A DNA stretch of 64,000 bases from an uncultured Pseudomonadales bacterium. Its GTDB lineage: Bacteria > Patescibacteriota > Microgenomatia > UBA1400 > PJMF01. The translations under genes and the position numbers were made by a program. Below are positions 5,805-56,380 of this stretch, piece by piece (the stretch's first letter is position 1; each line of letters begins with the position of its first letter). Where the stretch lies: NCBI GenBank assembly GCA_964447075.1, contig CAYUQY010000002.1, positions 11,317 to 75,316 on the forward strand. Reading direction: 5' to 3'. Below the pieces are notes generated by a model that saw only the letters and a program-made list of their open reading frames with translations, was not told where the DNA came from and ran no database searches.

Positions 5805-7178
5805 ATGAACTTCACTTCTCACAACCCTACTTTGGATCAGGACATCGCCACCTACGTCACAGTAACTCCTGCTCAGATCGCAGAAAAAATTAAGTTGGCT
5901 TCTTCAGCCTTTGAAAAATGGTCACAATCTCCACTTTCACAACGAAGTCAGTACTTACTAATGATTGCTGCAGCTCTTCGTCTCGAAAGAGTAAAGCTTG
6001 CAACCACTGCCGCTCAAGAAATGGGCAAGACTTTGAGTAGCAACCTAGCTGAAGTTGAGAAGTGCGCCTTGGTGTGTGAGTACTATGCCCAACATGGTGA
6101 ACAACTCCTCAAGACTCAATCGATTGAAACTGAAGCTAGCGAATCATTCGTCGAGTTTCAACCACTTGGTGTTATCTTTGCTATCATGCCCTGGAACTTT
6201 CCCTTCTGGCAAGTATTTAGAGCTGCGGCACCAGCAGTTATTTCTGGCAACACGTTGATTCTAAAACACTCATCACTTGTCCCTGCCTGCGCTCTTGCCA
6301 TCGAAAAAATATTTACTTCTTCACTTCTCCCTGATATGCCAAAAGAAGTTTTTCAAAGTATCTTTATCTCTTCGCGAGATAGTGAGCTACTCATCTCTCA
6401 CCCTGCAGTAACTGCCGTCACTTTGACAGGTAGTGAACAAGCAGGAAGTAGCGTTGCTTCCCTAGCAGGTAAACATCTCAAAAAATGCGTCCTTGAGCTT
6501 GGTGGCAGTGATCCATTTATAGTTCTGGATGATGCAGATCTAGAAAAAGCCTCAACTGCAGCTGTCGAGTCACGACTTATTGCCAATGGTCAATCTTGCA
6601 TTGCAGCCAAGCGATTCATTGTCGATCAGAAAATAGCCGCTCAATTTTGTGAACTTTTTAAAGCTAAGCTTGAAAAGATCAGAGTAGGGGATCCTCTCGA
6701 AACAAATACACAGCTAGGACCACTTGCCAGTCAACAAATTTTAGAAACACTTGAAGCGCAAGTTGCTCACTCGCTGACTGCAGGAGCAGTAGTAGTTACC
6801 GGTGGAGCTAGACTTGATCGCAGGGGGTTCTACTTTGCTCCAACTCTAATAAGAGGCGTCAAGCCTGGTATGGCTATCTATGAAGAGGAAACTTTTGGCC
6901 CAGTGGCAGCAGTTATAGAGGTTACCAACGATCAAGAAGCTCTTAAAGTAGCCAATGATACAAAGTATGGCTTGGGGGCTTCTATCTGGACAACCGACAG
7001 TAGTCGTACCAAGATTTTCATCAAGAAGCTGCAGTCAGGTTGTGTCTTTATCAACTCAATGGTCAAGTCTGACCCTAGGATGCCATTTGGAGGAGTCAAG
7101 TTATCAGGTTTTGGTCGAGAGTTATCAGAGTGGGGAGTAAAAGAGTTTGTGAATGTAAAATCAGTTTGGAGTTCCTGA
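5805..7178 (+). CDS. NAD(P)+-dependent aldehyde dehydrogenase (succinate-semialdehyde-DH-like)
   Basis: The ALDH glutamate motif LELGGSDP, the catalytic-Cys motif [11 protein letters not shown] and EETFGPV are present, over 457 aa. The gene sits 14 nt downstream of the TPP enzyme, so they are probably co-transcribed. Confidence 0.85.
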
Positions 7179-37063: not shown

Positions 37064-38536
<1,473 letters not shown>

Positions 38537-38693
38537 AAGGAGTATGGGTGGCGGACATCACGGCCCGCCATATTCCCTTCTAGCAGCAATGCTAGATGAA
38601 TCTTTCAAAATCCAGTGATATTCGTGTCCTGGTAGTAGCTATGTGCCACCTTGTTTGAGTCAGATTGGTGAATTTTTCTCTTTTTAAAATCTA

Positions 38694-38726
38694 AACCGTC
38701 ACTTGTATCTAGGTGGCGGTTTTTTG
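38694..38726 (+). terminator. Rho-independent terminator-like hairpin downstream of the 16S gene
   Basis: AACCGTCAC and GTGGCGGTT form a 9-bp stem (one G-U pair) around a 10-nt loop, followed by TTTTTG. Confidence 0.4.
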
Positions 38727-38885
38727 TAGTTCTTGAAGTTTCTGACCTGATACTTAATGCCAAGGTAATCAAACTTAAGAACTCATCACACCCAGTTCTA
38801 GATATCGTTCTCTGCATAAGTCGTACGACCGGTTAAAACTGTATCCCATGCGCTGACCTCTGCTCACAATCTTACGAACTGTCAA

Positions 38886-41800: not shown

Positions 41801-42314
41801 GAATGGGGAAGCGCAGAACAACACGTATGCATATAACCTAGTCACTTCCACCTTACCAAGCTCAATAGGTGTGGTCACTCGCGGAGCAGGTAGTAGCTAT
41901 GGACCGGTGCTTGGAACAAAGCTTTTCAACAACACTTTTTACCTAACTGGACAGTCAGCCCAAGGGGTGGTCTGTAGCTCTGGCTGCAGCGCTGACATTC
42001 TCACCATGAAAAATAATCTCATCTGGGCAAACTGGAAGGCTGCCTATGCTGATGCTCCATTTGGCGAAGGGCATAATGACTACTGGAAAACCGGAGGTTC
42101 GCCACTGATCCAAGGTTATGTACCTACAGCTACCTCTATAAGAATGGATCCACTATTTGTTTCATCTGGCTCAGATTTTCATCTACAAACCAGCAGTCCA
42201 GCCAAAAACATTGGAACAGACGAATCTACCACTGCAGGTTTTGGGTCTGATCTAGATGGCACGATAGTTCCGCAAGGTGTTGGAGTAGACCTTGGAGCCT
42301 TTGAGTGGAAGTAA
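38886..42314 (+). CDS. Large secreted multidomain protein: calcineurin-like metallophosphoesterase, PT-linkers, dockerin-like EF-hand pair, right-handed beta-helix
   Basis: A TM or signal segment (the likely start is the ATG at 38958) is followed by metallophosphatase motifs (GDLAYGSN, GNHE, GHDHNYQRS). After P/S/T-rich linkers comes DANGDGAVNEADYLIWKDHYGQ...DFDSDSKIDGVDYSIW (dockerin type-I-like), then NN..N..N parallel beta-helix repeats. Confidence 0.6.
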   Translation: MTYQKYCPMLISVVFTHPQKPLVGMEKQISKSHFFLSFIGNLFALAFLAISLSSFFINRATTHQVQAQSSSFTFGAAGDFGCMSSSCNGYKVLQKANTENLNFLLAVGDLAYGSNLPESTWCQNAKNALGAVPMQIISGNHETCGHNANYPTSIDDGYIDRFTTPTCLPIGLGAIPRESDELGKEYYFDYPLAPAAPLARFILLSPRANYAPPGGSCASPEYYDFVKNDVHYTWAKSKIQEARAAGIPWVIGVNHENYISTGDKTDEIGTDFFNLLLGEGLGPSGAPGQGVDLILQGHDHNYQRSKLLGLNSATCPKILGSGFDADCIKESGSNFTKGQGTVLVINGTGGLGHYPTNVGDTQNPYFSSWNDTAFGLIKFVVTPDQIYGEYKSVVGTHTDSFTISTNPTPPSSPTPVPSSTPPPSSASPSPSPSQSPLPSAGPSTTFVPFGSSWKYLDNGSNQATLWKERTFSDLNWASGSSELGYGDSDEATVVSYGPDSANKYVTTYFRKSFDLTNHQSFSGLTLKLVRDDGGVVYLNGTEVHRSNMPTGAISYTTQASSSIEETQDTVSVPASFLVEGNNTLAVEIHQSNVTSSDISFNLELTGISSGASATPSPQSPSPTPQPTSPTPSPTPAPIPGDANGDGAVNEADYLIWKDHYGQTIAGGNQVGDFDSDSKIDGVDYSIWLSHLVIDSSSPLPTASPAGITYYVDCNSGVDSNAGLSQDSAWQTLTRANAANLDPGQSLLLKRGCVWNEGLLLATEDSGSALQNVLVSAYGSGELPKIQRNANSTVAIKTSGSYITIENVLAEALPFNLDPDCGSNPVGYVLGFSFEKGASYNTLRNSVATGNYAGVYLKAGAHHNLVTNNILSNNIMMNPLDITVIIDGTAINNNNDAGAFGVLIHGNNNEVAYNTISGHDACSYDYVRDGAAVEIYGDSAVNPDGTINPATQNSIHHNRAHNNDAFTELGKETNGEAQNNTYAYNLVTSTLPSSIGVVTRGAGSSYGPVLGTKLFNNTFYLTGQSAQGVVCSSGCSADILTMKNNLIWANWKAAYADAPFGEGHNDYWKTGGSPLIQGYVPTATSIRMDPLFVSSGSDFHLQTSSPAKNIGTDESTTAGFGSDLDGTIVPQGVGVDLGAFEWK

Positions 42315-42319
42315 AACAT

Positions 42320-43351
42320 ATGAAAAACTCATCACTTGATATATCTCAAACTAATCCACTGATGAAGCTGACCAGTGTAAAAAGCTCAAAAGAGAAGTTG
42401 ATAGTCTCAGCGATTGTGCTAACTGTCCTAATTTTTGTCCTAGGAATTGGTCTAAGCTTGTCAAAGTCAGCCACAAATCTTGGTAGCAAAGCAGCCGGAA
42501 CAGGTACCGTTTTCTTTACTCCTACGACCCAGTCTCTGCCGCCTGACGCAACTTTAATGCTTCAGCTGGATTCCCGACTAACTCCAGTGGTCTTTGCCCA
42601 TATTGAGGTCAACTTTGATCCAACCAAAGTCCAGCTTGTGCAAAATGTGCAGTTGAGTAATCCTAAGCTAACTAGAGTCGTTGTCTTGACGCCAAGCTCA
42701 GAGGCCAATACAGTTGGAAAAGTGAAGATAGCTCTAGGCTTAGATCCTTTATATAAAATGACTCCACCGGTAGGAACAATAGATCTAGCAAGCCTTAAAT
42801 TCAAATCTATGACTCAGGATCCCAACACTGTAACGAACATTATAATTGACGGCCTGCATCAACAGATTGTGGGGGCTGACTCCACAACATTAGGAATTTC
42901 TACTCAGGATGCGACTCTAACTTTAAACCCTCAACCTTCTCCCTCACCAGCTGCCTCTCCATCACCCATCGCTAGCATCCCTCCCTCACCATCTGCCTCT
43001 CCATCACCAATCGCTAGCATCCTTCCCTCACCATCTGCCTCTCCATCCTCTTCCCCTCAGCCAAGTACATCTCCTCTTCCTATTAGCGTGACAATCACAA
43101 ACCCTCTAAATAACAGCACTGTAAGAGCCAACTCATACGTGAACATCGTCGCTGCTACCTCACCAAACATCACAAAAGTCGAGTTCTTGGTTAACAACTC
43201 GCTAAAGTGTGCCGATGTCGTCGTTCCTTTTTCATGCAGTTGGAAAGTTCCTGGCAAACAAAATGTGCTCTACAAACTTACAGCCAAAGCCTATGACAGT
43301 TCAGGCAACACAAGCCTATATAGTATTTTTGTAACTTCGAAGCGACAATAA
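42320..43351 (+). CDS. Secreted or membrane-anchored repeat protein (SPSPIASIPPSPSA repeats) with Ig-like C-terminal domain
   Basis: An N-terminal TM, a cohesin/Ig-like domain, three tandem PSPSASPSPIASI(P/L)PS repeats and a C-terminal beta-sandwich-like domain are present. The probable start is the ATG at 42320 rather than the GTG at 42305 used by the ORF track. Confidence 0.5.
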   Translation: MKNSSLDISQTNPLMKLTSVKSSKEKLIVSAIVLTVLIFVLGIGLSLSKSATNLGSKAAGTGTVFFTPTTQSLPPDATLMLQLDSRLTPVVFAHIEVNFDPTKVQLVQNVQLSNPKLTRVVVLTPSSEANTVGKVKIALGLDPLYKMTPPVGTIDLASLKFKSMTQDPNTVTNIIIDGLHQQIVGADSTTLGISTQDATLTLNPQPSPSPAASPSPIASIPPSPSASPSPIASILPSPSASPSSSPQPSTSPLPISVTITNPLNNSTVRANSYVNIVAATSPNITKVEFLVNNSLKCADVVVPFSCSWKVPGKQNVLYKLTAKAYDSSGNTSLYSIFVTSKRQ

Positions 43352-43515
43352 GAGTTTTTAGCCTTAATTCAATATTTTTCCAAAATTCTCAGTTGCTTGA
43401 TAGTTAACAGAAAGAGAGCTCGATCGAGAATCAAAAAATACTATCAAGTACAGTAAGCGCTTCTTACTTCCCACTTGCGCAGCAAGCCCTAAATGCGCCA
43501 CAATCATTCTCAACT

Positions 43516-43965
43516 ATGTCACTACTCACTGCTTTTCAAAATATCATCCGCACTCCGTCTGCTGCTTCACCTGCTAGTGCTTCAATGACTTTAGATACTC
43601 CCCAAGCTATCCAAAGCAGCAATCAAGAAAATACTCAATCAGTTGCAGTTACCCCAGAATCACCAATATCTACTGGAGCTCAACAATCAACCATAGCTAA
43701 TCAATCCCTCCAAACCACACCAACTAGCCCAACTCTAACAACGCCTATCATTTCGTTTCCAGTCAACTCAGGCGAATCCATGCGGAGTAGAGTTCTAGCT
43801 CCACCACGGCCAGTACCCATCACTCCAGAGCTGAGTAGAAGCACCCCAGCCCAATCAAATTTAGCCCAATCACCAGCAGAAAATTTAGAAAACTCTTTCT
43901 ACACTCATCCTCCAGATTCCAGTCTTCAAAACAACACATCAGACTCTACTGTCAATAGATTTTAA
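43516..43965 (+). CDS. Hypothetical S/T/P/Q-rich low-complexity protein (doubtful)
   Basis: It is an open frame of only 149 aa with no signal peptide and no motifs. It could be non-coding. Confidence 0.2.
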   Translation: MSLLTAFQNIIRTPSAASPASASMTLDTPQAIQSSNQENTQSVAVTPESPISTGAQQSTIANQSLQTTPTSPTLTTPIISFPVNSGESMRSRVLAPPRPVPITPELSRSTPAQSNLAQSPAENLENSFYTHPPDSSLQNNTSDSTVNRF

Positions 43966-44033
43966 TTAACAATTTGAATCGCAAATTTATTTTTTTTCTA
44001 GCGTCTTACATATAACTGCAGCTCCACCCATCT

Positions 44034-45632
44034 CTATCTACTTTTAAGATTCTTAGTAATTTTAGTTTTTTTAGTTCTTTTATGAGATGCAGTTTCAATG
44101 GCTTTTACTTTAGGCACATCAGCAGTTTTTAGTAACAGTCCTGCCTCAAGTTCTTCTGCGTGTTTGAGACCTCTTCGGATTGAATTTTTAGCCGCAGTAG
44201 TCACCACAAACTCGAGCCAATCTGGATTAGGTTTAGTTCTCCCTCTATCAAGAATTATCTTGACAATGTCGCCATTTTTCAGCTGGTAATTGAGCGTCAC
44301 CATCCTACCATTTACACTTGCGCCGACTGCCTGATGACCTAGCTCCGTGTGGACGCTGTAGGCAAAGTCTATAGGTGTTGCCATGCGAGGCAAGTCGTAT
44401 ACATCGCCTCGTGGAGAAAAAACTAGATTACGATGTTGCAAAGCATCGAACCGTAAGGCGTGAAAATAGTCTTCATTGTTAGTGATTTCCTTCTGCCAAG
44501 CTGCAAGCTGAGTAACCCACGCCAGTTTCTCTTTTGGTACAGCCACCCCATCCTCTAGATCTTGATCTGAAACTCCACTAGACTTTGCCTGGGCATAGTA
44601 CCAATGGGCAGCAACCCCATACTCCGACTGCTCGTGCATCTCTTGAGTACGTATCTGCACCTCACAGATAGACTCATTCGGTCCAATCAGATTTGTGTGA
44701 ATGCTCTTATACCCATTAGGCTTTGGATTGGCAATAAAATCACGAACTCCTAGAAATGGCACCGGATGATAAAGCCTATGTACAACTCCCAAAGTAAGGT
44801 AACAATCTTCCACGTTCTCAACCACTATTCTAAGAGCTTTGATGTCATGCACCTTGGTAATATCTTTATTGTGCTCTGGTCTGAGTAGTTTTAGGTAGAG
44901 ACTATAGAGAAACTTAGCTCGTGTATGGAGAGTTACTTTTTTTATGCCGTGTTCTTTAAGAGCTGTCAGAACTTCACGACGCATTTTTTCGATTATCACA
45001 TTTGCCAGCTTGTAGTACCTAGAGGTGTAGCGCTTGACCCACTCATAGTCCTTGGGATAGACGTAAGGAAAGGCTAAGTCCTCTAACATACCCTTGACGT
45101 GACCCATTCCTAGCCGCTCGGCTAAAGGTGCATACACTTCGAGTGTTTCAGTAGCAATTCGCTTCTGTTTGAGCGGTGGTAGGGCAGCCAATGTCTCCAT
45201 GTTGTGGAGACGGTCAGCTAGTTTGACCAAAACAACCCGTAGGTCTTTGGCCATCGTCAAAATCATCTTGCGCAAGTTCTCAACAAACTCTTCTTGGGTA
45301 TTATTTTTGAGGCGAATATTACTAATCTTGGTCACTCCATCTACCAACACAGCCACACTTTCACCAAAATTTTTCACTATGTCCTGGCGAGTAGCTCCAC
45401 CATCCTCAATAGTGTCGTGCAGTAGCCCAGCCACCACAGAGTCTGTGTCCAATCGCCACTTAACAATCGTCACGGCTATGCTATTTGGATGCTCAATAAA
45501 GGAAGTGCCATCTTTTCGTTTTTGTTCAGTATGAGCCAAGTTGGCAAACTCCCAGGCACTCTGAATTTTTGCTAAGTCCAAAGTTCTTGGAGATCTAGCA
45601 GCTTCGTCAAGCAGATCCTGAAGTAACGACAT
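44034..45632 (-). CDS. Short RelA/SpoT-homolog (HD hydrolase + synthetase + TGS; no ACT/RRM tail)
   Basis: An HD domain (HDTIEDGGAT) and the synthetase domain motifs (YKSIHTNLIGP...CEVQIRT..MHEQSEYGVAAHWYYA) are present. The TGS domain (SPRGDVYDLPRMATPIDFAYSVHTELGH...VNGRMV) follows. The protein is 532 aa. Confidence 0.85.
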   Translation of the reverse strand: MSLLQDLLDEAARSPRTLDLAKIQSAWEFANLAHTEQKRKDGTSFIEHPNSIAVTIVKWRLDTDSVVAGLLHDTIEDGGATRQDIVKNFGESVAVLVDGVTKISNIRLKNNTQEEFVENLRKMILTMAKDLRVVLVKLADRLHNMETLAALPPLKQKRIATETLEVYAPLAERLGMGHVKGMLEDLAFPYVYPKDYEWVKRYTSRYYKLANVIIEKMRREVLTALKEHGIKKVTLHTRAKFLYSLYLKLLRPEHNKDITKVHDIKALRIVVENVEDCYLTLGVVHRLYHPVPFLGVRDFIANPKPNGYKSIHTNLIGPNESICEVQIRTQEMHEQSEYGVAAHWYYAQAKSSGVSDQDLEDGVAVPKEKLAWVTQLAAWQKEITNNEDYFHALRFDALQHRNLVFSPRGDVYDLPRMATPIDFAYSVHTELGHQAVGASVNGRMVTLNYQLKNGDIVKIILDRGRTKPNPDWLEFVVTTAAKNSIRRGLKHAEELEAGLLLKTADVPKVKAIETASHKRTKKTKITKNLKSR

Positions 45633-45641
45633 GAGCCTATT

Positions 45642-47030
45642 CTACTCCACAAATGTCAAAGCCACGCCTTTTTTATCAGCTCTGCCAGTACGACCAATTC
45701 TGTGAATATAATCTTCAAGAGTTTCTGGCAAGTCAAAGTTGATCACGTGAGAAACATCATCTATATCAAGTCCTCTAGACGCTACGTCTGTAGCGAGCAA
45801 GACTTTGACTCTGTTACTTTTGAACTGATCAATAGCTTTTTGTCTCTGATACTGAGATTTATTGCCATGAACTGCCGCAGCTGAAATTCCCAAGTCATCA
45901 AGATTTTGTGAAAGTCTCTCTGTAGCTCGCTTTGTTCTCAAGAAAATCAAGACCTTTTTGAACTCATCTTGCATCAACATCTCTTGCAAGACCTCAATCT
46001 TGATACGACCGTTGGTGCGAATGATGTTTTGGTCAATATTACTAGTAGTTGGAGCTGTTTTGACAGAGATCTGTACTGGATTGTTCAAGAAATCTCTCAT
46101 TACTCTCTCGATATCTGACGTCATCGTGGCTGAGAAGAAGAGAGAGTGTCTCTCCTGTGGTAAGAGGGCCACTAAGTGACGTATGTCTCTAATAAAGCCC
46201 ATATTTAACATCTGGTCAACTTCGTCCAAAACTATATTCTGGAAAAACTTTAAGTTGAGAGCGCGTTGGTTTTCCAAATCTTTAAGTCTACCTGGGGTAC
46301 CAATCACAACTCTAGGTGTGCGGCGCAACTTCTGCACCTGAGTGTTGATGTTCATGCCACCTATGCAAAGAGCTGTATTAATACTCATGCCCTTGGCAAA
46401 AAGTTGACATTCTTGCTCTATCTGAACAGCCAGCTCTCTAGTTGGCGCTACAATGAGGATTTTTTGAGTTGAGTCTGCAGACAGCTTCTGAATCAAAGGA
46501 ACCAAAAATGCAGCTGTTTTACCTGTGCCAGTGTTGGCCAGACCAACTACATCACGTCCTGACAAAACAACGGGAATAACTTTATCTTGAATTGGTGTGA
46601 CTTGAGTGTAGCCACGCTCATCAATATTTTTTTGAAGCTGTGAGTGAAGTGAAAAACTTAAGAAAGTGTTTTCTGGCTCATATTGAGTGCTGACTACAGG
46701 AGTTGTAGCCTGGCTTACAAATCTTGATGGGTCAAATGATCTACGAGCTCTCATGGCAGATCTACCGCCTCCTGAGGATCTCTGTCCACCACCAAATGAG
46801 GATCGACCTCCAGAAAATGATCTTGAGCCTCCACCAAATCCTCTCGAACCACCAGAAGAACTACTACGAGCCCCTCCATAGCTACGAGGTCTATCTCCAA
46901 ACGAAGCTCCCTCAGAACTTCTCTGAGAGCCTCTATCCGAGACTGAATCTGATCTACGACTTGTGAAGCCCCTACTGTTTCCACTCTGGCGGTTGCCTGA
47001 TGGAGAGCTTGCGCGCTGTGACTGATACAT
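45642..47030 (-). CDS. DEAD-box ATP-dependent RNA helicase with ~110-aa N-terminal Gly/Ser/Arg-rich (RGG/SGG-type) extension
   Basis: Q-motif, GTGKTAAF, PTRELA, DEVD (DEAD variant), SAT, ARGLD and HRIGRTGR are present. The N-terminus reads ...SYGGARSSSSGGSRGFGGGSRSFSGGRSSFGGGQRSSGGGRS. Confidence 0.9.
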   Translation of the reverse strand: MYQSQRASSPSGNRQSGNSRGFTSRRSDSVSDRGSQRSSEGASFGDRPRSYGGARSSSSGGSRGFGGGSRSFSGGRSSFGGGQRSSGGGRSAMRARRSFDPSRFVSQATTPVVSTQYEPENTFLSFSLHSQLQKNIDERGYTQVTPIQDKVIPVVLSGRDVVGLANTGTGKTAAFLVPLIQKLSADSTQKILIVAPTRELAVQIEQECQLFAKGMSINTALCIGGMNINTQVQKLRRTPRVVIGTPGRLKDLENQRALNLKFFQNIVLDEVDQMLNMGFIRDIRHLVALLPQERHSLFFSATMTSDIERVMRDFLNNPVQISVKTAPTTSNIDQNIIRTNGRIKIEVLQEMLMQDEFKKVLIFLRTKRATERLSQNLDDLGISAAAVHGNKSQYQRQKAIDQFKSNRVKVLLATDVASRGLDIDDVSHVINFDLPETLEDYIHRIGRTGRADKKGVALTFVE

Positions 47031-47255
47031 AACAATACTTCCTCCCTGTAGATACAGGGCTGATCAAAAAGGGGAGGATAGCAAGTGAAAATTTGGCGGC
47101 GACTTACTTAAAAGACACTATTTTCGTACTAACCTAAAAGCGTACTCGAGGCACGCACCGTTCTTTTTGTGATGAACGCTTTAAAAATTGCGTCCTTAAG
47201 GTGGTAATTGTACAGTACATTTTCTGCTTTGTCTATAGTTATAGGCTAACAGTCC

Positions 47256-50054
47256 TTAACCTGACTCGCTTCTTACCGCTACGTCACCAGACATAGGGCA
47301 GCTCTCAAAAAGCCTATCTCTGAAGTACTCCATGTACTCGCTACCTGGATCAAACTTGGGGTACTTCAAGTACTCCTTAGGGACATCATAGTGACCTATG
47401 AAGCTCTGGACAGGAATTTTATACTGCAGTCTGACCTGGCACGCATTTTCCACGGCTAGATCTGAAATTTTAAGTAACTCTTGAGTGTGATTCCTCACCG
47501 TAATTTGGGTATATTTACTGTCCTTGCCTTCAGTCGTATTTTGGGCAAAGTGATCACAGATCGCCTCAACATCCTGATTGAAATCAACATAGGCCTGGTC
47601 AGGAATCGAGTCTGGAGCAAGCTTACCAGCCAGAACTTGATTGAAACAGACCCCACTCAGCTCATTATTGAGCGCCACAAAGTTGGAGTTCCTGCCCGTA
47701 CAAGCTGCACGCTCAACTCTATCACTGTAGAACTTCATCAGAGCCCAAACTCCGTCCTTGTCCGTCGCAAGCTGGCATGACGAGCCATTTCCTTCTACAA
47801 CACCTTTTATGGTTGACGCATCTAACCAAGCGCCAGCCCAGTGAACTACGAAGTACTTTGGAACTACGCAGACATCTATGAGTCTTCCGTAACGCACATT
47901 TTCTTTGATCAGATTTATTTTGTCTTCAGCTACAAGACTCTCAGTTATAGAATCGCCGCTACAGTTGATGTAGCTACTTTTTTTAATTTGCTTCAGTAGC
48001 TCATCCTGGTTCAGCTCTATTTGATACTTAGGCTGATACCTGAGTCTAGTGCTTGAAGGTATGTTACTGACCATTGGACTCTCCAGATTATCAGCATCGG
48101 TCGGCTGAGCTTCCAAGCCAGAGTTGACCATTGGTAGTCCTTTTCTGCGACACATCACTAAGATTAGGTCTGAAAGTGAGTTGGCTTGAATTGGAGTCAA
48201 GAAATCGTTGGGCAGAGTGTGACACTCAAAGTTTTGGGTAGCATAAAGTAGAGGCACCAGATCCTGAGTAAACAAATCAGTTACCACTATGAAGTTATTG
48301 ATAGAGCTAAGTAACTTAAAAGTATTCTCATACTGTTTATTGGTCTTACCAGAGCTACGGTACTTTATCTCATCTTGTGAAGTAATATTTTCCAAGACAG
48401 GCTTTCCTTTGAGAGCCCCTAAGAAATTGATAAAATTATTCTCCCCATAACTGGTAGTCAATGAGCCATCTACAGCGTCCCAGAGTACAGTATATTTGTC
48501 AGCAATCTGGTAAACATTGTCATTAAAAAACAACTTCAATCCAGCTGCATACTCAGACAAAAAATAGGATGTACTCTGAGAATTTTTTAAGGATGGATAA
48601 GGTCGCCACGAATAATCAGACTTTAGTGACAGAGCCACACTTATCACACTCATGAGGAAGATAAATCTGGATACATTTTTTTTCGCCAGAAAAGTAATCA
48701 GAATCTTATGGAGAGAAGCTGGGTTATCAAAGATAATCCAAATAAGTACTATAAAATGCAGCGGTGCGATGTATCTGCCGTAACCAGAATAAAGTGACCA
48801 AAAAAAGTATGTTGCTACAACAGTTATGGAAAAGTAGAATCTCGAAGTAAAAATTCCTCGTCGAGATAAAAGGGCAGAACTTGACTGCAGCAAACAGTAA
48901 AGATATGCAAAGCCTGACACCAGAACAAGAAAAATATTGGCATACCAAGAGATATAAATTTCTGTGTAGCGAGAGGTGAACGAGCCAATAATTGGCCAGG
49001 TTATTGCTTCCAGAGCCGAGCGCGGTCCAAAGTCACTTGACTCAGAGTGCCTAAGCTGGTGAACATACCATGACCCTGAGAGTTTATTAAAAATTTGTGA
49101 AGTGCTCTCACCTGAAATATCAAGTTGAACCAGATGCATTTCCTCCAAAGTTACGCGGATAAAGTAAAAACTACTCACTCCAATAAAGATCAGGACTGGA
49201 AGAATAAATTTAAGCCACTGTTTAAACTCTTGGAGCTGTTTTTTTAATGACCAAAAAACAGATAGACAGATAAATAACCAGAACGGGGAAAAAACTACGA
49301 CCGACTGCTTGGTTAAAATTGACATAACTACAAAAATAATAACTAGGGTAGCTGAAGATAAGTTGCTCTTAGTAGGCAGAGATTTAAATTTTAAAAATTG
49401 ATAGAAGGCTTCTAAACAAATCAAAGCGCTCCAAACGTCTGTCATAAAAGTAGCGTGCGTGGCAACGAGTAAGGGAAAGTAAAAGAAGCCAACGAAAGTA
49501 ATAAAGATCAACTTTGGAGATTTCTCTGGCATTAATTCTGTAAATCTACTAGCCAGAGAAACGACCCAGATCGAGAGTAAAAAACCACTTAACAAGAGTG
49601 TAGCTCTAATCCCAATACTTGCCAAAAAAGGAGTGTAGTTTTGATTAAGAGCTGGATATTTATACTGAGCAATTCCGTTAAAGTTACCACTGCTGAAAGG
49701 CGACTGACTATAAAATGCGGCAGGAATGTGAAAAGCCAGATCATCATGAGTAGGATAGTAGAGAGGTGTTCTAATTATAAAAAGGGCAAAACAGACACCA
49801 AAAAGTGCCACCGATAATTTTTTATGGCTAGAAACTAAAGCAAATTCACTTCTCCATCTCAAACCATAAAATAAGACTACGGCAAAAAGTAGAACATGTA
49901 GGCCGACAGAGACCCACCCTTCACCAGACAATGGAATCAGAGCAACAACTGAAAGATAAGCCATGTTTGAGGCTGTGGAGCAGAGAAACAAAAAAGGAAG
50001 TGCTTGAAAAAGTACTGAGAGAAAATAATTTACCCCTTTTTTAGCAAACTTCAT
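47256..50054 (-). CDS. Large membrane protein: N-terminal polytopic GT-C/YfhO-like domain plus ~450-aa extracytoplasmic C-terminal domain
   Basis: The 932-aa product has about 12 N-terminal TM helices followed by a soluble Cys-containing domain. No specific family was recognised. Confidence 0.45.
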   Translation of the reverse strand: MKFAKKGVNYFLSVLFQALPFLFLCSTASNMAYLSVVALIPLSGEGWVSVGLHVLLFAVVLFYGLRWRSEFALVSSHKKLSVALFGVCFALFIIRTPLYYPTHDDLAFHIPAAFYSQSPFSSGNFNGIAQYKYPALNQNYTPFLASIGIRATLLLSGFLLSIWVVSLASRFTELMPEKSPKLIFITFVGFFYFPLLVATHATFMTDVWSALICLEAFYQFLKFKSLPTKSNLSSATLVIIFVVMSILTKQSVVVFSPFWLFICLSVFWSLKKQLQEFKQWLKFILPVLIFIGVSSFYFIRVTLEEMHLVQLDISGESTSQIFNKLSGSWYVHQLRHSESSDFGPRSALEAITWPIIGSFTSRYTEIYISWYANIFLVLVSGFAYLYCLLQSSSALLSRRGIFTSRFYFSITVVATYFFWSLYSGYGRYIAPLHFIVLIWIIFDNPASLHKILITFLAKKNVSRFIFLMSVISVALSLKSDYSWRPYPSLKNSQSTSYFLSEYAAGLKLFFNDNVYQIADKYTVLWDAVDGSLTTSYGENNFINFLGALKGKPVLENITSQDEIKYRSSGKTNKQYENTFKLLSSINNFIVVTDLFTQDLVPLLYATQNFECHTLPNDFLTPIQANSLSDLILVMCRRKGLPMVNSGLEAQPTDADNLESPMVSNIPSSTRLRYQPKYQIELNQDELLKQIKKSSYINCSGDSITESLVAEDKINLIKENVRYGRLIDVCVVPKYFVVHWAGAWLDASTIKGVVEGNGSSCQLATDKDGVWALMKFYSDRVERAACTGRNSNFVALNNELSGVCFNQVLAGKLAPDSIPDQAYVDFNQDVEAICDHFAQNTTEGKDSKYTQITVRNHTQELLKISDLAVENACQVRLQYKIPVQSFIGHYDVPKEYLKYPKFDPGSEYMEYFRDRLFESCPMSGDVAVRSESG

Positions 50055-50136
50055 GACAACTAGTATACGTTGTACCGACAGTTCTGATCCAGTACATCAA
50101 GTTATGACTTAAAGACACATTCCTTAGGCATCTATC

Positions 50137-50281
50137 TGGACAACCACAAAAATATAAGAGTATGAGGTCATGATCCAATCCACTCCTGATATTTTTTATA
50201 TTGACCAAGAAGGTCTAAAGAGCCTAAAGCTGGTAGGTGTTGCTTATTCTCACATCAATCGAGAAGATTTTGCCACTCAAG
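50137..50281. repeat. Direct repeat copy 1 (about 145 bp; 124-bp core identical to 52766-52889)
   Basis: TGGACAA(C/T)CACAAAAATATA...GAGTATGAGGTCATGATCCAATCCACTCCTGATATTTTTTATATTGACCAAGAAGGTCTAAAGAGCCTAAAGCTGGTAGGTGTTGCTTATTCTCACATCAATCGAGAAGATTTTGCCACTCAAG reappears 2.6 kb downstream. Copy 1 carries a relic 53-codon ORF (MIQSTPDIFYIDQEG...). Confidence 0.75.
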
Positions 50282-50828
50282 GCCAAGGCTTGCCAGCCAC
50301 GAGAATTCCCTTAAGCACCGCCTCACCCTGATCATCCACAACAACCCTAGCTGCTGCCTCCTTACGAAAAAAGCTAAAGTTACGTCCCGTTCCTTCGGGA
50401 ATAAAGTACTCTTCAACTCCATATGTTATGTGATAACGTGGAATCGTAAACTGCTGATTGAGTACATCAGTCTGATCCACTATATCTCCGCTTGTTACCA
50501 TGCCTTTAATAAAAATCTGATCCGAACCTATCGGCTTCTTCAACAGAGCGCGCTGGGCAATCCAGTAGTTGCCATTCTTTACTAAAAGAACATAGACAGT
50601 CTCACCATTTTTAATTCTAGCAAAGTCAAAATAGGCTGACTCTAGCTCAGAAATATCATACTGGAACGTGACGTAGTCACCTCGCAATGGACTGTTGGGG
50701 TCAACAGGTGCAATTCTAAGCACTACCTCGGTCCCCCCAGTAAGGATCATGAGTTTAGTAACAATCATGACGGCGATGATCAATAGTTGCAGAGCAACTG
50801 CCAGAGAAAATTTGAGTTGTTTAGTCAT
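50277..50828 (-). CDS. GDYXXLXY-domain protein (membrane-anchored)
   Basis: An N-terminal TM and the motif RGDYVTFQYD (GDYxxLxY-type) are present, over 183 aa. The stop codon lies within 5 nt of the repeat boundary. Confidence 0.55.
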   Translation of the reverse strand: MTKQLKFSLAVALQLLIIAVMIVTKLMILTGGTEVVLRIAPVDPNSPLRGDYVTFQYDISELESAYFDFARIKNGETVYVLLVKNGNYWIAQRALLKKPIGSDQIFIKGMVTSGDIVDQTDVLNQQFTIPRYHITYGVEEYFIPEGTGRNFSFFRKEAAARVVVDDQGEAVLKGILVAGKPWP

Positions 50829-51956
50829 GATTGTGTCTGTATTTGAGCTGGTACTATCGACTCTGCTTTGATGTTAGCCAACATGATTCTCCTACCTTTC
50901 TCCATGAACCAACCTACAACAAAAAGAAGGATGCCGGCGCCAATGAAGAAAAGACTCTTATCCAAGTAAGTAAAGAACCAGTCAAAGTACTTCACTACCA
51001 CTAAGATAAAAAGAAAGACTGTTCCTAAATTTATTAGCCAGCTTTCTCTCCTAAGATAACCTGAGAAAATTAATCCCAGCACTTCAAAAAAAACCGTAAT
51101 ATTAAAAATAACCGACCAGATAATGCCCGCACTCGCCAACTGGTTACCCGCTCCAGATACAGAGTAAAAAGAAGGATTATTTCCTGACTGAACAAAAATT
51201 GTTTGTTGAGGTAAGAAAACCGTCAGACCAAACAAGAATGTAAGGAACACAACTGCAGCAGTCTCAGCTGGTAACATCAATTTTCTACTAAATACGTAAA
51301 AAATCATTCCTAGTAAGGACACCAGTAAGATGGTCATTGATAAAGTAGCTTCCCAGGAACTCAAAAGTGAGCCACCAACTGTTAAGTCTGACAAAATTCC
51401 TAAGCCAGGTTTTGTAGATAACACAAACAATACTCCTGTTACCAACAAGATGCCAAACATCAGGTATACCAAAGAGAAACGCTTCTCTTTTAAGTCTCTT
51501 TCGTGAAAATGTCCAACAACGTAAAATAATAAGGCTAAACATAGTTCCAACTAAAATTGCAGAACTTTTGAGCTCATGACCGCGCGTCCATTGGGATGCC
51601 TGCAGTCCCCACCAACTCACCATACCAATCAAACTAAAAATGAGAGTAGCTAAAGCTCTAAAGTAGTAAGTCGTCACAAATCCTAGTACTGTAGTCAAGA
51701 TAACTATGGTTCTCCAATCGATCGGATCACCCAATAGTCGATCGATGGATAGCATGGTCACACCTAAGAAAAACATTGACAGGAGTAGAAACCACTGGCT
51801 AAGTGCATCTTCTTTTGAAAGAGCCAGCTGTAGATACCAAGATGAGTTTTGAGAAGGGTGAACATTGACGTTTTTTCTTGTTAGAAAGTAGACTATGAGG
51901 GCAGGAATACCTACAGGTGGGAAAGCAATAGCTAGGATAATAATTAGTATCAACAT
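50825..51956 (-). pseudogene. DUF4401-like polytopic membrane protein, disrupted by a frameshift (ORFs 51288-51956 and 50825-51550 overlap by about 260 nt in different frames)
   Basis: Both ORFs are TM-rich. The combined length of about 377 aa matches a single DUF4401-type protein lying between DUF2157 and GDYXXLXY genes. Confidence 0.45.
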
Positions 51957-51962
51957 GATTGT

Positions 51963-52655
51963 TTAGTAGTAGCCTTTTAGATCATCTGGCATGTTCCTGC
52001 GAATACTCCAACCAAAAGTAAAAGTGATGGCTGTTGCAACTATCAAGAGTCCTGTTGATGTCAGAAGGAAGCTGCTTGCGGTAAAACTAGAGATAATATT
52101 GTAAGGATGACCTAAAATAGCTGCTATGCCTAGTGGTATTGCTAAGTAATAGAGGGGATACGACTCCAGAGCATATGCCAGGGCAATGGTGCCCAACATC
52201 CAGAGAATAAAGCCGTCTGGCCAGTTTGCCCTGATGTGAAACATCTGAGCCACTAAGAAGATACCTGCGCCAAAAATTATTGCGCCAAGTAAGATTAATG
52301 CCTCACCAGTTTTGAGTAATTGATACTTTTCTTTTAGGCTCCAACCAAGAGCATACGAGGTAAGCATACTCAGGACAATTATTGAGATCTTGATCGGCTT
52401 ATCCATCACTTGCCAGTTAGAGGCAATGAATGAAAAAATGCCCGCTCCTACCAGCAGAGCGGCAAAGGTCAGAATGATGTTGATCGTTTTTTTCTGAGTA
52501 TCTTCTTTTTGTTGATCTGAAGTTAACGAATTTAAGTTTGCTTGAATTCTGTCAATTTTTATTCCCTGTCCAAGAAGTTCACTATATAGGTCTTCCTTGG
52601 ACTTACCCTGAAGTATCGAGGTTTGAATATATGCTGCTAGCTGCTGATCATTCAT
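51963..52655 (-). CDS. DUF2157-like membrane protein (soluble N-terminal region + 5-6 TM)
   Basis: The 230-aa product has a hydrophilic N-terminus (MNDQQLAAYIQTSILQGKSKEDLYSELL...) followed by TM helices. It is the first gene of a three-gene minus-strand cassette. Confidence 0.5.
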   Translation of the reverse strand: MNDQQLAAYIQTSILQGKSKEDLYSELLGQGIKIDRIQANLNSLTSDQQKEDTQKKTINIILTFAALLVGAGIFSFIASNWQVMDKPIKISIIVLSMLTSYALGWSLKEKYQLLKTGEALILLGAIIFGAGIFLVAQMFHIRANWPDGFILWMLGTIALAYALESYPLYYLAIPLGIAAILGHPYNIISSFTASSFLLTSTGLLIVATAITFTFGWSIRRNMPDDLKGYY

Positions 52656-52742
52656 AGAGTATTTTGTCTCAACTAAGTTTACACTCTTATTTGCATTTTA
52701 ATTCAACTAGAAGTCAACCATTTAGATGGTGCTCGGCCTGAG

Positions 52743-52889
52743 TGGACAATCACAAAAATATATGAGAGTATGAGGTCATGATCCAATCCACTCCTGATAT
52801 TTTTTATATTGACCAAGAAGGTCTAAAGAGCCTAAAGCTGGTAGGTGTTGCTTATTCTCACATCAATCGAGAAGATTTTGCCACTCAAG
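52743..52889. repeat. Direct repeat copy 2 (overlaps promoter and first 37 codons of the Ddl-like gene)
   Basis: It is identical to 50158-50281 over 124 bp. Upstream of that core there are 25 more bp with one mismatch and a 2-nt indel. Confidence 0.75.
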
Positions 52890-53818
52890 CGGCCTACGAT
52901 GGAGAAATAGAGGTAGAGGACAGAGCTGAAGAAGTGATAGCTGAGATAGCCAAGCTTGGTGTCCCTGTCAAAGGTTATGCCGGAGACTCGTACTTCTTCA
53001 CAAATGTCCTAGTGGATAAACCAAATTTGATTCTTAATCTAGTCGACACTGTGCGTGGTCGTGATGCCCTCCAACCAGCTATTCCTGGAGCCCTAGAGCT
53101 CTCCAATGTTCAGTACACTGGAGCCGGCATGAGTGGCTTGGTGATAGGTAACAATCGCCACATGTTCAAGCAGCTCTTGATAGCCCATGACATCCCAACT
53201 CCTCAATACAAGTTTATTCGTGACTTGCGTTCAAAGATTCCAGAGTCTCTGGGTCTTCCATTAATTGTCAAACTCAATGAAAGTGGTGGTAGCGTAGGCA
53301 TAGACAACAAAGCTGTCAAAGAAACTCTAGAAGCAGCGACTAAAAAAGTTGAAAGCATGATCGATGCTTATAAAATTCCTGTCATTGTCGAAAAATTTAT
53401 CAACGGTCCAGAAATCACAGCAGTGATTTACGATGATAGTCGTCGCAAGCACATCTTTTTAGGTCAGAAAATCTTCAGACTCCAACCTGATGGAAAGCAT
53501 GACTTCACCAGTCTTGAGAGCTATGAGGATATCAAAGCTTATAAGTACAAAGTTCCAGACCAAGCTATTATCGATAAAATTAATCCTTTAGTAGCAAGAG
53601 CCTTCGACACTCTCGGCTGTCGTGACTACGCCAAGTTTGACATCAGATGGGAAGAATCTACTTCTACTCCCTACTTTATAGACTGTAACCCAAACACAGC
53701 TCTAGGACCAGACAAAGGCCTGCCAATGACTGAGGTCTTGATGCTTCACGGTATTGACTTCACCACCCTCCTCAAGAGTCTCTTGAGCAAACACGCTCGC
53801 ACACTGCAGAGGCAGTAG
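52778..53818 (+). CDS. D-alanine--D-alanine-ligase-family ATP-grasp protein
   Basis: The N-terminal domain (LVGVAYSH...), a central ATP-grasp region (IPTPQYKFIRDL...GLPLIVKLNESGGSVGI) and the C-terminal FDIRWEE...PYFIDCNPNTALGP (Ddl-like R-D-x-E-N-P pattern) are present. Confidence 0.55.
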   Translation: MIQSTPDIFYIDQEGLKSLKLVGVAYSHINREDFATQAAYDGEIEVEDRAEEVIAEIAKLGVPVKGYAGDSYFFTNVLVDKPNLILNLVDTVRGRDALQPAIPGALELSNVQYTGAGMSGLVIGNNRHMFKQLLIAHDIPTPQYKFIRDLRSKIPESLGLPLIVKLNESGGSVGIDNKAVKETLEAATKKVESMIDAYKIPVIVEKFINGPEITAVIYDDSRRKHIFLGQKIFRLQPDGKHDFTSLESYEDIKAYKYKVPDQAIIDKINPLVARAFDTLGCRDYAKFDIRWEESTSTPYFIDCNPNTALGPDKGLPMTEVLMLHGIDFTTLLKSLLSKHARTLQRQ

Positions 53819-53882
53819 GGCTAGACTCTGGCTATATTTTCCGGGGAGTGATTGAGAGATAGCCAGCCCACCATGCGTGTAA

Positions 53883-55652
53883 CTACTTGCAGACACTTTT
53901 TGCATACTCTATATACTTAGCCACAAGCTCTGAGTTTTCCTTAATGAGCTGATAAGCCTGCCACTCTCTAAAGTTAAACTGAGTGATGTCGGTAAGCGGG
54001 GCGCCACCTTTTTCTAAGGCTTGGTATTTACTGCTCAACCTCTGCAACTTATATTCAAGATAGCTCGACTGCCTTTTTAAAATTATTTTATCGACAGGGG
54101 GACCGTAAGGTGGGTAATCCGTGATGTCTTCAGTGTAAGCGACGCAAATTGGCAGATAGTTACTACCGAAGGAATCAACACCAGCCGAGGAGAAGTACCC
54201 CCAATAATAATTCCTATCTGGCTTAGCAATTTTAGTAGTCATCGCTTCTCCCATGTGTGACTCCCAAAACCCAAGATTATCGTAGGAATTGCCCACGATA
54301 TAAGCAAAGTCTTTTTGGAGAGACTGGTCGACAAAGTACTTGGGAGCGCCCAGCTGACTAACAAGCATGTCAGTAGGGAAGATATTCAAACACAGAATAA
54401 AGATAGAAAAACTTAGTACTTGCGAACGAAAAATGACTTTTGCAGTGATCTTTTGATAAATTTGAAAGATGGTAGAAATAAAAGTCAGCAAAATGATCAA
54501 AGTTAAACCAGTAGCTAATATGCGCTGATCCTTAAGCCCAAAAGTAGACTGAAGCACATAGAGCTTGTGAGCCATAAAGACGCTGACGGCGACCAGCTGA
54601 AGGCTAAAAACGGTTAAAATTTGTTTTATACTTCTGGATTGTTCATCACAAATCGCTATTCTTCTAAGAATAAACTGAATCAAGCAGTAGCCTAAAAATG
54701 AAACCACGATTAGCTCAAGAAAACCTTTCTGTACATATTGAGATATAACCGTGAAAGTCAGCTTGGCAATATCCTGGAAAAGTAACTTAGCTTGAAAACT
54801 AGAGAAGATAAAAAACAATGAAGCAACACCAAAAATGATAATCTTGAAGGTCACTAACTTCCATTGGTTCTCGAACTCTTCATCTTGATCGTGAGATCTA
54901 GAAAGCGTCAAAAATACAAAGAATAGATAACCTTGGACCAGACCTTGAAGCAAAATTCTAAATATGTCGATCTCAAAAATGAAACTTATGATCTTTTGAA
55001 TCCAGTAAAAGATATCTGAAGTAAACTTGACATACTCTTGATTAATACCTAAGAAAAGTACATGAAATATCAGCATTACGGGTATAGATAAAAGTAACCC
55101 TGAGGCGACTGACATTCTCAGAGTAAAGTTAATGTTCTTAGCCTTAAACCTCATGTAACTACTCAAACTTGTCAGAGAAAGAATGTTCAAGATGTAGTAC
55201 TTGGAGTAACGTAACGAACTACCAACAAGCTCCGAGAGTGAGTCTTGAGACCTACCCTCAAAAATATATATAGATAAGATAAGTGTAATCACCCAAACTA
55301 CCTTCGAAGTTACATCCAGCATGAGTGAGTTGGTTGTGACAGATAAAAATACCGATAAGAAAGCACCAAGACCCATCAATAATTTATGATATTTTTCAAA
55401 AGGCAGATTACGACTGCGGCCCATCAAGAAAATTAAGCTAAAAATAGTCAAGTGAAAAAGAGTAGCCTGAAGATTGCTTCCTATTTTAAAAAAACCAATA
55501 AAAACTACATAAAGTATACCTATGATAAAACTCAAGCTCTTGGTGCTCAAGTAAAAGCGCGCGAGACAGTTATCAAGACTAAAACTAGCCATCAGCTTTT
55601 CATTTGGTGGGGCAGTGTTTTCTAAACTAGGTGAGTGAACTGCTTGTTTCAT
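53883..55652 (-). CDS. Polytopic membrane protein with C-terminal soluble domain (unknown family)
   Basis: The 589-aa product has at least 12 TM helices and a ~170-aa C-terminal extracytoplasmic region. Confidence 0.4.
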   Translation of the reverse strand: MKQAVHSPSLENTAPPNEKLMASFSLDNCLARFYLSTKSLSFIIGILYVVFIGFFKIGSNLQATLFHLTIFSLIFLMGRSRNLPFEKYHKLLMGLGAFLSVFLSVTTNSLMLDVTSKVVWVITLILSIYIFEGRSQDSLSELVGSSLRYSKYYILNILSLTSLSSYMRFKAKNINFTLRMSVASGLLLSIPVMLIFHVLFLGINQEYVKFTSDIFYWIQKIISFIFEIDIFRILLQGLVQGYLFFVFLTLSRSHDQDEEFENQWKLVTFKIIIFGVASLFFIFSSFQAKLLFQDIAKLTFTVISQYVQKGFLELIVVSFLGYCLIQFILRRIAICDEQSRSIKQILTVFSLQLVAVSVFMAHKLYVLQSTFGLKDQRILATGLTLIILLTFISTIFQIYQKITAKVIFRSQVLSFSIFILCLNIFPTDMLVSQLGAPKYFVDQSLQKDFAYIVGNSYDNLGFWESHMGEAMTTKIAKPDRNYYWGYFSSAGVDSFGSNYLPICVAYTEDITDYPPYGPPVDKIILKRQSSYLEYKLQRLSSKYQALEKGGAPLTDITQFNFREWQAYQLIKENSELVAKYIEYAKSVCK

Positions 55653-55654
55653 AT

Positions 55655-56380
55655 CTACTTTCCAAATCTTCTGTGACGAGCTGCAAACTCTTTTAGTACT
55701 TCATCTAATCTGTCTGGTGTAAAATCTGGAAAACCAAACTTAGGAAAAGCAAACTCGCTGTAAGCAGACTGCCAGCTCATGAAGCCAGACAGCCTCATCT
55801 GACCACTGGTGCGAACAATCAAATCTGGATCAGGTATACCTTTAGTATCTAAGTTAGACTCAATCTCAGCTGCTGTGACTTCCTGTCCAGCTAACTTACT
55901 TGAGAGCAACTTATTAACTGCTCTGAGTAGTTCGTCATGTCCGCCATAGTTCACGGCTATAACCACTATTAGTCCAGTGTTGTCTTTAGTTAGTTCGAGA
56001 CCTTCTTTAATTTTTTCCTGAATGTCAGTCGCCAGTCTGCTCGGATCACCAATCATAATCACACGAATATTCTTTTCGTGTAGTCTCTGAACTTGTGAAT
56101 CAAAAAACTCTCTAAATAAATCCATTAAGTAACCTACCTCCTTCTTATCGCGCTTCCAGTTCTCGGTACTAAAGACCCAGAATGTTAAGTACTTAATGCC
56201 TCGCAAGGCAGCTCTATCCACAAGTGGCTCAATCACTTTTTGGGTAGCTTGTCTGTGACCAAGAAAAGCCTCCAAACCATGAGCTCGAGCCCATGTTCTA
56301 TTGCCATCACAGATAATCGCGACGTGACTAGGTCCCTTAAGATCTGAATTTGATAGTTTTGAATCAGAATTAATTTTCAT
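55655..56380 (-). CDS. uppS: Undecaprenyl-diphosphate synthase (cis-prenyltransferase)
   Basis: HVAIICDGNRTWA, LTFWVFSTENWKR, IGD and the RTSGQMRLSGFMSWQSAYSEF tail are present. Confidence 0.9.
   Translation of the reverse strand: MKINSDSKLSNSDLKGPSHVAIICDGNRTWARAHGLEAFLGHRQATQKVIEPLVDRAALRGIKYLTFWVFSTENWKRDKKEVGYLMDLFREFFDSQVQRLHEKNIRVIMIGDPSRLATDIQEKIKEGLELTKDNTGLIVVIAVNYGGHDELLRAVNKLLSSKLAGQEVTAAEIESNLDTKGIPDPDLIVRTSGQMRLSGFMSWQSAYSEFAFPKFGFPDFTPDRLDEVLKEFAARHRRFGK

Follow-up and report, generated by a model that had tools for sequence, protein, structure and literature searches.

Integrative elements with long att identity, such as phages and islands that target tRNA genes or gene ends, reconstitute the end of their target gene. 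Mobile insertion cassettes and elements resembling miniature inverted-repeat transposable elements (MITE-like) are non-autonomous. In Campbell-type insertion-duplication, a host fragment comes to lie as direct repeats on both sides of the insert; when it includes the 5' end of a gene, truncation affects the upstream copy while the downstream one stays complete, and the insert can pop out again. Homology-facilitated illegitimate recombination (HFIR) is defined by the asymmetry between a homologous and an illegitimate end, and is usually described with a deletion of recipient DNA (PMC3240628). Interchromatid integration during transformation can place an intact and a cassette-disrupted copy of an essential gene next to each other (PMC3784515). 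The locus described here lies in a 64,000-nt stretch (the window) of contig CAYUQY010000002.1, positions 11,317 to 75,316, from an uncultured member of the Patescibacteria, an affiliation to which the names of homologues also point. It consists of three minus-strand membrane-protein genes, the cassette, lying between two copies of the 5' end of a Ddl-like ATP-grasp gene. The cassette genes form a DUF2157, middle-gene and GDYXXLXY series, the triad. It is moderately probable that the feature is a real chromosomal scar of a one-off recombination, an insertion-duplication, and neither an att site nor a transposon target-site duplication (TSD).

A preliminary description of this DNA had reported near-identical repeats at 50137-50281 and 52743-52889, and alignment of the copies confirms them (Table 1). 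A repeat search of 48000-55000 returned this pair, at a spacing of 2608, as the only strong direct repeat. The long identical run seen earlier was also recovered by exact comparison, at a length of 125 nt (50157-50281 = 52765-52889) instead of 124. It is preceded by 20-22 nt carrying one C/T change (C50144 versus T52750) and a 2-nt TG indel (52763-52764). The window has exactly two occurrences of a 50-mer taken from the repeat, where 0 would be expected, and it contains neither a third repeat copy nor a second cassette. Copy 2 is made of 35 nt located 5' of the Ddl-like ATG (52778), 37 codons, and one further nucleotide. Its assignment to the promoter region and first 37 codons of the gene therefore stands, as does that of copy 1 to a relic reading frame running antisense into the cassette.

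Table 1. Features of the window locus, and inverted-repeat arms at triads of other genomes (coordinates of the respective locus).
Feature	Position	Strand	Remarks
Repeat copy 1	50137-50281	+	145 nt; relic of Ddl-like promoter and first 37 codons
Repeat copy 2	52743-52889	+	147 nt; working Ddl-like promoter and codons 1-37
Relic reading frame, 53 aa	50170-50331	+	37 Ddl codons, then 16 codons antisense to GDYXXLXY 3' end
Copy 1/cassette junction	50277-50282		repeat supplies TGA stop and 2 nt of last Pro codon
GDYXXLXY gene, 183 aa	50277-50828	-	PF14345, E=5e-32, full length; family-invariant ...KPWP C-terminus
Middle polytopic membrane gene	50825-51956	-	split in two frames; weakly DUF4401-like
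DUF2157 gene, 230 aa	51963-52655	-	PF09925, E=1e-33
Cassette's own upstream region	52656-52742	-	87 nt; -35-like TTGACT at 52712-52717 (minus strand)
Ddl-like ATP-grasp gene, intact, 346 aa	52778-53818	+	Pfam Dala_Dala_lig_C
Left neighbour, 932-aa membrane protein	47256-50054	-	same strand as cassette
L081 arms	3956-4068 / 6479-6591		92% identity
L107 arms	2093-2215 / 4635-4757		89% identity
L116 arms	723-865 / 3301-3446		83% identity
L101 arms	5858-5943 / 8414-8501		85% identity
L109 arms	83-232 / 2734-2874		76% identity

The left boundary of the repeat coincides with a promoter edge. When copy 2 is aligned with 11 relatives, the layout T(T/A/G)GACA, 17-18 nt, nAnTAT, 6-9 nt, ATG is conserved. 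This promoter is our reading of the alignment; a consensus promoter/terminator scan gave nothing above shuffles and did not call it. Copy 2 carries TGGACA, a 17-nt spacer, GAGTAT, and 6 nt before the ATG. Copy 1 has the -35-like TGGACA at 50137-50142, and its spacer to GAGTAT measures just 15 nt, so that the promoter of the relic is probably crippled. Because both copies start at the first base of the conserved -35 element, the repeat is best described as a predicted minimal Ddl-like promoter plus 37 codons. In our reading, this promoter would be sigma-70-like and so near the ATG that the mRNA would be leaderless or nearly leaderless. The promoter-like layout is visible at 52743-52780 of the window and at the matching positions in L002, L004, L005, L011, L013, L015, L028, L068, and L069; a leaderless or near-leaderless Ddl-like mRNA may thus be implied for this clade of Patescibacteria.

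The junction between copy 1 and the cassette falls in a codon. The TCA at 50277-50279, inside copy 1, is the TGA stop of the GDYXXLXY gene, and since the repeat also holds two bases of the preceding Pro codon, the cassette ends at or within its own stop codon. All 44 GDYXXLXY homologues with an in-frame stop at this place end in ...WP-stop, with TAA in 31, TAG in 10, and TGA in 3. The window gene thus uses a stop found in just 3/44 homologues, and the C-terminus of its protein is unchanged. A possible microhomology of at most 6 nt (CTTGAG) is shared with Ddl codons 36-37. These features point to an illegitimate microhomology joint, and not to a site-specific site.

The absence of transposase and integrase stated in the preliminary description has been upheld: no transposase, integrase, or recombinase domain occurs in the cassette or in the called genes within ~11 kb on each side. 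The same holds for its remark that a repeat of this length greatly exceeds a transposon TSD. A transposon or insertion sequence (IS) was rejected on these grounds, as there are no terminal inverted repeats (none of at least 25 nt at the ends of the window cassette) and the duplication measures 145-147 nt, compared with about 2-14 bp. An integrating att element shares with the locus the direct repeats that duplicate a gene end, the intact target gene, and an identical core (here 125 nt) at both ends, the last being a trait of any duplication. It differs in that the locus has no integrase, the repeat is not found on related cassettes, the junction lies at a stop codon, and the insert is a 2.5-kb segment with three membrane genes. 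A site-specific att element was also rejected, with no integrase or recombinase within ~11 kb and no conserved element-borne att in ~90 triad loci. Searches of these other loci with the repeat by blastn and tblastn returned chance matches alone, both as DNA and as peptide. Around 50 other triad loci, the long direct repeats were palindromic terminators alone, and a comparable repeat exists only in the window. Of the earlier proposal of insertion by recombination, the truncated upstream and intact downstream anatomy thus supports the general idea, but not its attB-like version, which finds no counterpart in the other triads and disagrees with a stop-codon junction.

Composition gives no sign of a foreign origin, and foreignness was rejected as a property of the cassette. 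In GC content, GC at third codon positions (GC3), and tetranucleotide profile, it matches the host window; the tetranucleotide distance falls at the median of the window controls, and GC3 is as in the neighbouring genes. The preliminary description had proposed a comparison of GC and codon usage between cassette and flanks, and no difference appeared. The cassette is therefore either long resident or derived from a close relative.

Independent read data are provided by the Logan k=31 contigs of SRR8670877, which match the window exactly. L055 corresponds to window positions 38497-50186, L001 to 50252-52794, and L056 begins at 52860. Each of these contigs stops exactly k-1 = 30 nt inside the perfect run, and therefore the four junctions are present in raw reads, as is the frameshift of the middle gene. 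With A for the side of the 932-aa gene, R for the repeat, C for the cassette, and B for the Ddl side, these junctions are A/R, R/cassette, cassette/R, and R/Ddl. L001, with the R/cassette junction, is supported by reads from two samples, and the deposited 82-kb contig passes through both repeat copies. A de Bruijn k-mer artefact was rejected as the cause of the repeat, because the copies continue for 20 nt beyond their identical part, with three differences there, and because reads contain the junctions.

Relatives were sought among 53 GTDB species-representative Ddl loci with 10-kb flanks and the closest JGI/Logan relatives. All of these genomes and metagenomic relatives have one Ddl-like gene, which is intact, and neither the cassette, nor any triad, nor the 932-aa gene is found near Ddl. 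The comparison with related genomes suggested in the preliminary description thus identified no empty site. The contexts of Ddl are already unrelated at 79-80% amino acid identity, so the comparison is uninformative on the direction of the event. A DEAD-box helicase lies at most 10 kb from Ddl in 16 of these loci, and less than 400 nt away in L002, L035, and L046. This hints at an older helicase-Ddl linkage; because the helicase adjoins Ddl in relatives, the 932-aa gene and the cassette may both be later arrivals. The triad itself is widespread, with hundreds of Patescibacteria sequences and a best DUF2157 identity of 72% at the amino acid level. Its gene order is invariant in all of the ~60 loci that extend far enough, and it never stands beside Ddl. 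No triad was found on viral contigs or phages, and plasmids gave one distant match (31% identity).

The repeat is host sequence, its upstream copy is truncated, and its downstream copy runs into an intact gene. This arrangement is the signature of insertion-duplication and therefore supports the scar. From it we infer how the exchange may have proceeded and which side may have been the newcomer. Two alternative gene orders 5' of Ddl, '932-aa gene | Ddl' and 'triad operon | Ddl', would have been joined, their sole homology being the shared segment of minimal promoter and 37 codons, which would consequently end up twice. On one side, homologous exchange would have occurred in the Ddl promoter and 5' coding region; on the other, an illegitimate junction using a few bases of microhomology would have connected Ddl codon 37 to the GDYXXLXY stop codon. 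Such a course would fit HFIR or a fragment that circularised and then integrated in the Campbell manner; the partners were probably close strains or sister chromosomes. In the simplest version, a fragment 'helicase ... 932-aa gene - Ddl codons 1-37' would recombine into a strain with 'cassette - Ddl', with no need for a topological trick, and the reverse direction or a circular intermediate would be equally compatible. The downstream copy keeps Ddl intact and probably expressed, the upstream copy being a dead relic. Later, the promoter of the relic would have lost 2 nt, and the middle gene of the cassette would have gained its frameshift. At the window locus, the cassette is not an autonomous mobile element and is itself decaying, as the frameshift indicates. 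The repeats should still be a substrate for pop-out of the RecA type, yielding a 2,608-bp circle; excision by homologous recombination had been anticipated in the preliminary description, and the anatomy would indeed permit it.

The insertion-duplication so proposed shares all the features of the Campbell type listed above, namely the host fragment as direct repeats including a gene 5' end, the truncated upstream and intact downstream copies, and the possible pop-out. In contrast to insertion-duplication mutagenesis, it would be a natural event with no vector, with a hypothetical circular intermediate and with one illegitimate junction, in a stop codon. As in HFIR (PMC3240628), one end is homologous (the Ddl promoter and 5' region), the other has a few bases of microhomology at most, and no recombinase is needed. 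The outcome in the window differs, being a 145-nt duplication that would need two differently arranged haplotypes or an interchromatid event, and transformation is hypothetical in this organism. Transformation-triggered merodiploidy (PMC3784515) is similar in that a probably essential gene is present as an intact copy next to a disrupted one, with repeats as borders. In that system, the duplications span 100-900 kb and are IS-bordered, whereas the one in the window spans 2.6 kb and is bordered by the 5' end of the gene itself.

The wider triad family shows signs of mobility of its own, which lend substance to a different explanation of the window. The triad could be a cassette dedicated to mobility that lacks a recombinase and moves through functions supplied in trans or through circular intermediates, and the 145-nt repeats could be its insertion footprint, from which a 2,608-bp circle can be excised again. 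For the window, this is quite unlikely. Speaking for such a cassette, 9 of 40 distinct triad loci, counted after dereplication, carry flanking inverted repeats (32-214 nt, 76-100% identity), compared with 0 of 209 control segments of matching length taken from those loci. The diverged arms of L081, L107, L116, L101, and L109 cannot be assembly artefacts, because the two arms differ in sequence (76-93% identity in several loci). Inverted repeats are also listed for L082, L079, L100, L097, L125, L067, and L075; in L067, a k=31 unitig, the terminal inverted identity is exactly 30 nt. In every case, the arms terminate on their inner side between the -35 and the -10 of the operon. They are 30-200 nt long, vary from clade to clade, and take in the -35 of the operon itself; a weaker arm remnant is visible even in L058. 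In addition, triads that are 82-96% identical in DNA have flanks without homology even by tblastx (the pairs listed for this, L086/L100, L081/L082, L107/L130, L122/L101, and L072/L075, span 82-99.9%), whereas Ddl loci at just 76-80% identity usually retain kilobases of flank homology. The unit shared by L081 and L082 is arm-operon-arm. These comparisons suggest that the triad operon relocates or is transferred horizontally. A tRNA gene is located less than 500 nt away in 14 of 28 triad loci, compared with 7 of 47 Ddl loci, and many different tRNA identities and anticodons are involved (loci listed for this proximity: L116, L058, L094, L097, L102, L105, L106, L110, L114, L118, L122, L135, L136, L142, and L143). 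In L116 (1-3674), the triad with its arms occupies the spacer between tRNA-Ile and tRNA-Ala, directly 3' of the 16S rRNA end.

These hallmarks of the family suggest frequent relocation of the operon. They do not explain the direct repeats of the window. The window copy has neither inverted-repeat arms nor a tRNA gene nearby, no other triad has a long direct repeat, and the outer ends of the arms in relatives show no consistent TSDs. The lack of an R-like att sequence elsewhere, of a recombinase nearby, and of triads on viral contigs or phages, with the single distant plasmid match, argues in the same direction. The triads of relatives resemble mobile insertion cassettes and MITE-like elements in being flanked by inverted repeats without a transposase and in having a unit common to unrelated contexts (L081/L082). 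They differ from them in their clade-specific arms, which include the operon -35, and in the missing TSDs, and the window copy is armless. Neither the window, with no inverted repeats, nor the relatives, with no consistent TSD, thus present a non-autonomous cassette with terminal inverted repeats. A broader hypothesis can nevertheless be put forward tentatively, although it is unlikely. According to it, the DUF2157/360-aa/GDYXXLXY operon would be an unrecognised recombinase-less mobile cassette of Patescibacteria, moving among tRNA-proximal and other sites. In several clades, it would carry long inverted-repeat arms that divide the operon promoter, at their inner end, between -35 and -10. It would integrate and excise via target homology, and the window repeats would record a recent integration of this kind. 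At the family level, the idea of a novel mobile module of membrane proteins envisaged in the preliminary description gains unexpected indirect support (arms, unrelated flanks, and tRNA adjacency), none of which involves long direct repeats like those of the window.

Other explanations concern the assembly and the chemistry of the event. The contig is metagenome-derived, and a mis-resolved repeat or a mixed population might have produced it, either from an A-R-Ddl empty site together with an R-cassette circle or tandem array, or from two strains threaded into one contig. At k=31, R is a two-in, two-out node, and the k-mers of A-R-C-R-B are also those of A-R-B together with an R-C circle; L075 and similar palindromic contigs also show that triad flanks can confuse assemblers. 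This is improbable, since the R/cassette junction within the stop codon is seen in the reads of two samples and some rearranged molecule must exist in any case. Moreover, the left ends of the copies differ, so that 150-nt reads or k>127 could tie the left end to the right junction, and the deposited contig traverses both copies. An intact Ddl protein is found on no Logan contig, as expected if the repeat is present wherever the organism occurs; an exact look-up of this protein in assemblies gave no record. End-joining at a staggered double-strand break, with nicks 145 nt apart filled in and a 2,461-bp fragment ligated between them, would create a very long true TSD. The direct orientation of the repeat, its exact abutment to both cassette ends, and a native composition compatible with an intragenomic fragment agree with it. 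It remains distinctly improbable, however, as two illegitimate junctions would be needed, and the Pro and stop codons would have to be restored by chance (~1%, our own estimate from the homologue ends) unless microhomology was used. The left boundary exactly at the promoter edge and the lack of a second cassette copy in the window also disagree with end-joining. Finally, tandem duplications with later deletions are frequent in bacteria, and a segment from the Ddl promoter to a downstream cassette could have been duplicated, the first copy then being largely deleted. Such a history predicts a second cassette 3' of Ddl, but the window shows no such cassette over the 11 kb that follow; it also needs two events with precise end points and is highly improbable.

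Several observations weigh against the insertion-duplication scar itself. All three differences between the copies fall in the left 20 nt, where divergence of donor and recipient and decay after the event fit equally well. Neither an empty-site nor a donor haplotype was found, the neighbourhoods of the closest Ddl relatives (79-80% amino acid identity) being unrelated, and JGI metagenomes contain no exact match to the 50-mer of the repeat. The length of the microhomology is not measurable without the original 3' flank of the cassette, and 6 nt is an upper limit. A short-read k-mer graph cannot prove the linear order A-R-C-R-B across a 125-nt repeat, and the mobility signs of the triad family leave room for a dedicated mechanism.

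If the scar is real, what is new here is a natural recombinase-free insertion-duplication in which the repeat is the promoter and 5' end of a gene and one junction lies in a stop codon. It would be a clean natural case that keeps a probably essential gene alive, with the promoter of the relic already crippled. It may be useful as a marker of recombination-driven change of gene order in the ultra-small genomes of Patescibacteria, and as a caution for the assembly of metagenome-assembled genomes. The mobility signal at the family level is the more surprising lead, and the feature of the window is probably a one-off. If the family pattern is true, a widespread and uncharacterised three-gene membrane operon changes context at high identity, which would point to a route of gene mobility in the candidate phyla radiation without an element-encoded recombinase. 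The tRNA clustering and the long inverted repeats point toward the same route.

Further observations were made on triad loci of other genomes. Partial duplicates of tRNA 3' ends occur 100-145 nt 3' of the tRNA and directly 5' of the triad in L058 (9649-9668 and 9814-9833), in the upstream region of L136, and in L076 and L102; they resemble att-type scars left behind by small insertions. Four different tRNAs are followed by one and the same ~30-nt sequence, GAATTTGACTTTCGG...TTGACCGAC, in L058, L110, and L122, and, inverted, in L101. In L101, the outer part of the arm recurs a third time (97%) at 1339-1441, 4.5 kb upstream, with a tRNA-Arg gene ~130 nt away; in that genome, the arm sequence therefore also occurs apart from the triad. 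L075:1-6615 reads as an almost perfect palindrome with the triad in its middle, and its two ends share 2,062 nt of inverted identity. L072, which belongs to the same species (99.9%), differs in its left flank, which begins 19 nt ahead of the ATG. The explanation is either an operon that can invert in that population or an assembly that went through one flank twice. Comparison of the L081 arm at 3956-4068 with the upstream arm of L082 indicates a hairpin in which pairing is kept via different stems (GGCAAAACGGAAA/TTTCCGTTTTGCC versus GGTTTTGCGAAA/TTTCGCAAAACC) around the conserved loop TATTTTCTGGGGAAAAGGA. This compensation hints at a structured DNA or RNA element.

Within the cassette, the DUF2157 and GDYXXLXY proteins score 116.6 and 111.1 bits, both above the Pfam gathering score, and stand in the triad order. 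DUF2157 has been unified with the transmembrane domain of LiaI-LiaF from envelope-stress systems (PMC11237479). The DUF2157-DUF4401-GDYXXLXY triad of the preliminary description is thus retained for its two outer families (PF09925 and PF14345), strand, and order, but the middle gene stays below the Pfam cut-off for DUF4401 (17.5 and 15.8 bits, cut-off 30.4). Intact homologues of this gene from L057 and L058 gave no Pfam match, and it is DUF4401-like only in its position and by a weak similarity. Its frameshift, also reported before, is evident from two frames that change near 51533-51542, intact homologues having 360-368 aa. In the alignment, the distance from TTGACT to the ATG in the cassette reads the same as in the closest relative, L057. 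An integron cassette, in which an attC site follows a promoterless reading frame, is not suggested by this arrangement, with three genes and their own -35/-10-like upstream region; no attC-like structured site was found 3' of the last cassette gene, where the repeat abuts the stop codon, and no known RNA families were detected in 47000-56000 at E<=0.1.

On the right side of the cassette, the Ddl-like protein matches Dala_Dala_lig_C with E=1e-15. Its best NCBIfam Ddl score, 98.7 bits against a cut-off of 243, is below every Ddl cut-off, and the protein has therefore been named 'Ddl-like ATP-grasp'. Its gene is probably essential. On the left side, the 932-aa polytopic membrane protein belongs to no Pfam or NCBIfam family, and its gene is not near Ddl in any relative examined. 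No terminator-like site was found between the cassette and this co-oriented gene, so transcriptional read-through from the one into the other would be likely. The 932-aa gene and the cassette part Ddl from a DEAD-box RNA helicase (45642-47030, minus strand), which carries an N-terminal extension of ~120 aa rich in Ser, Gly, and Arg.

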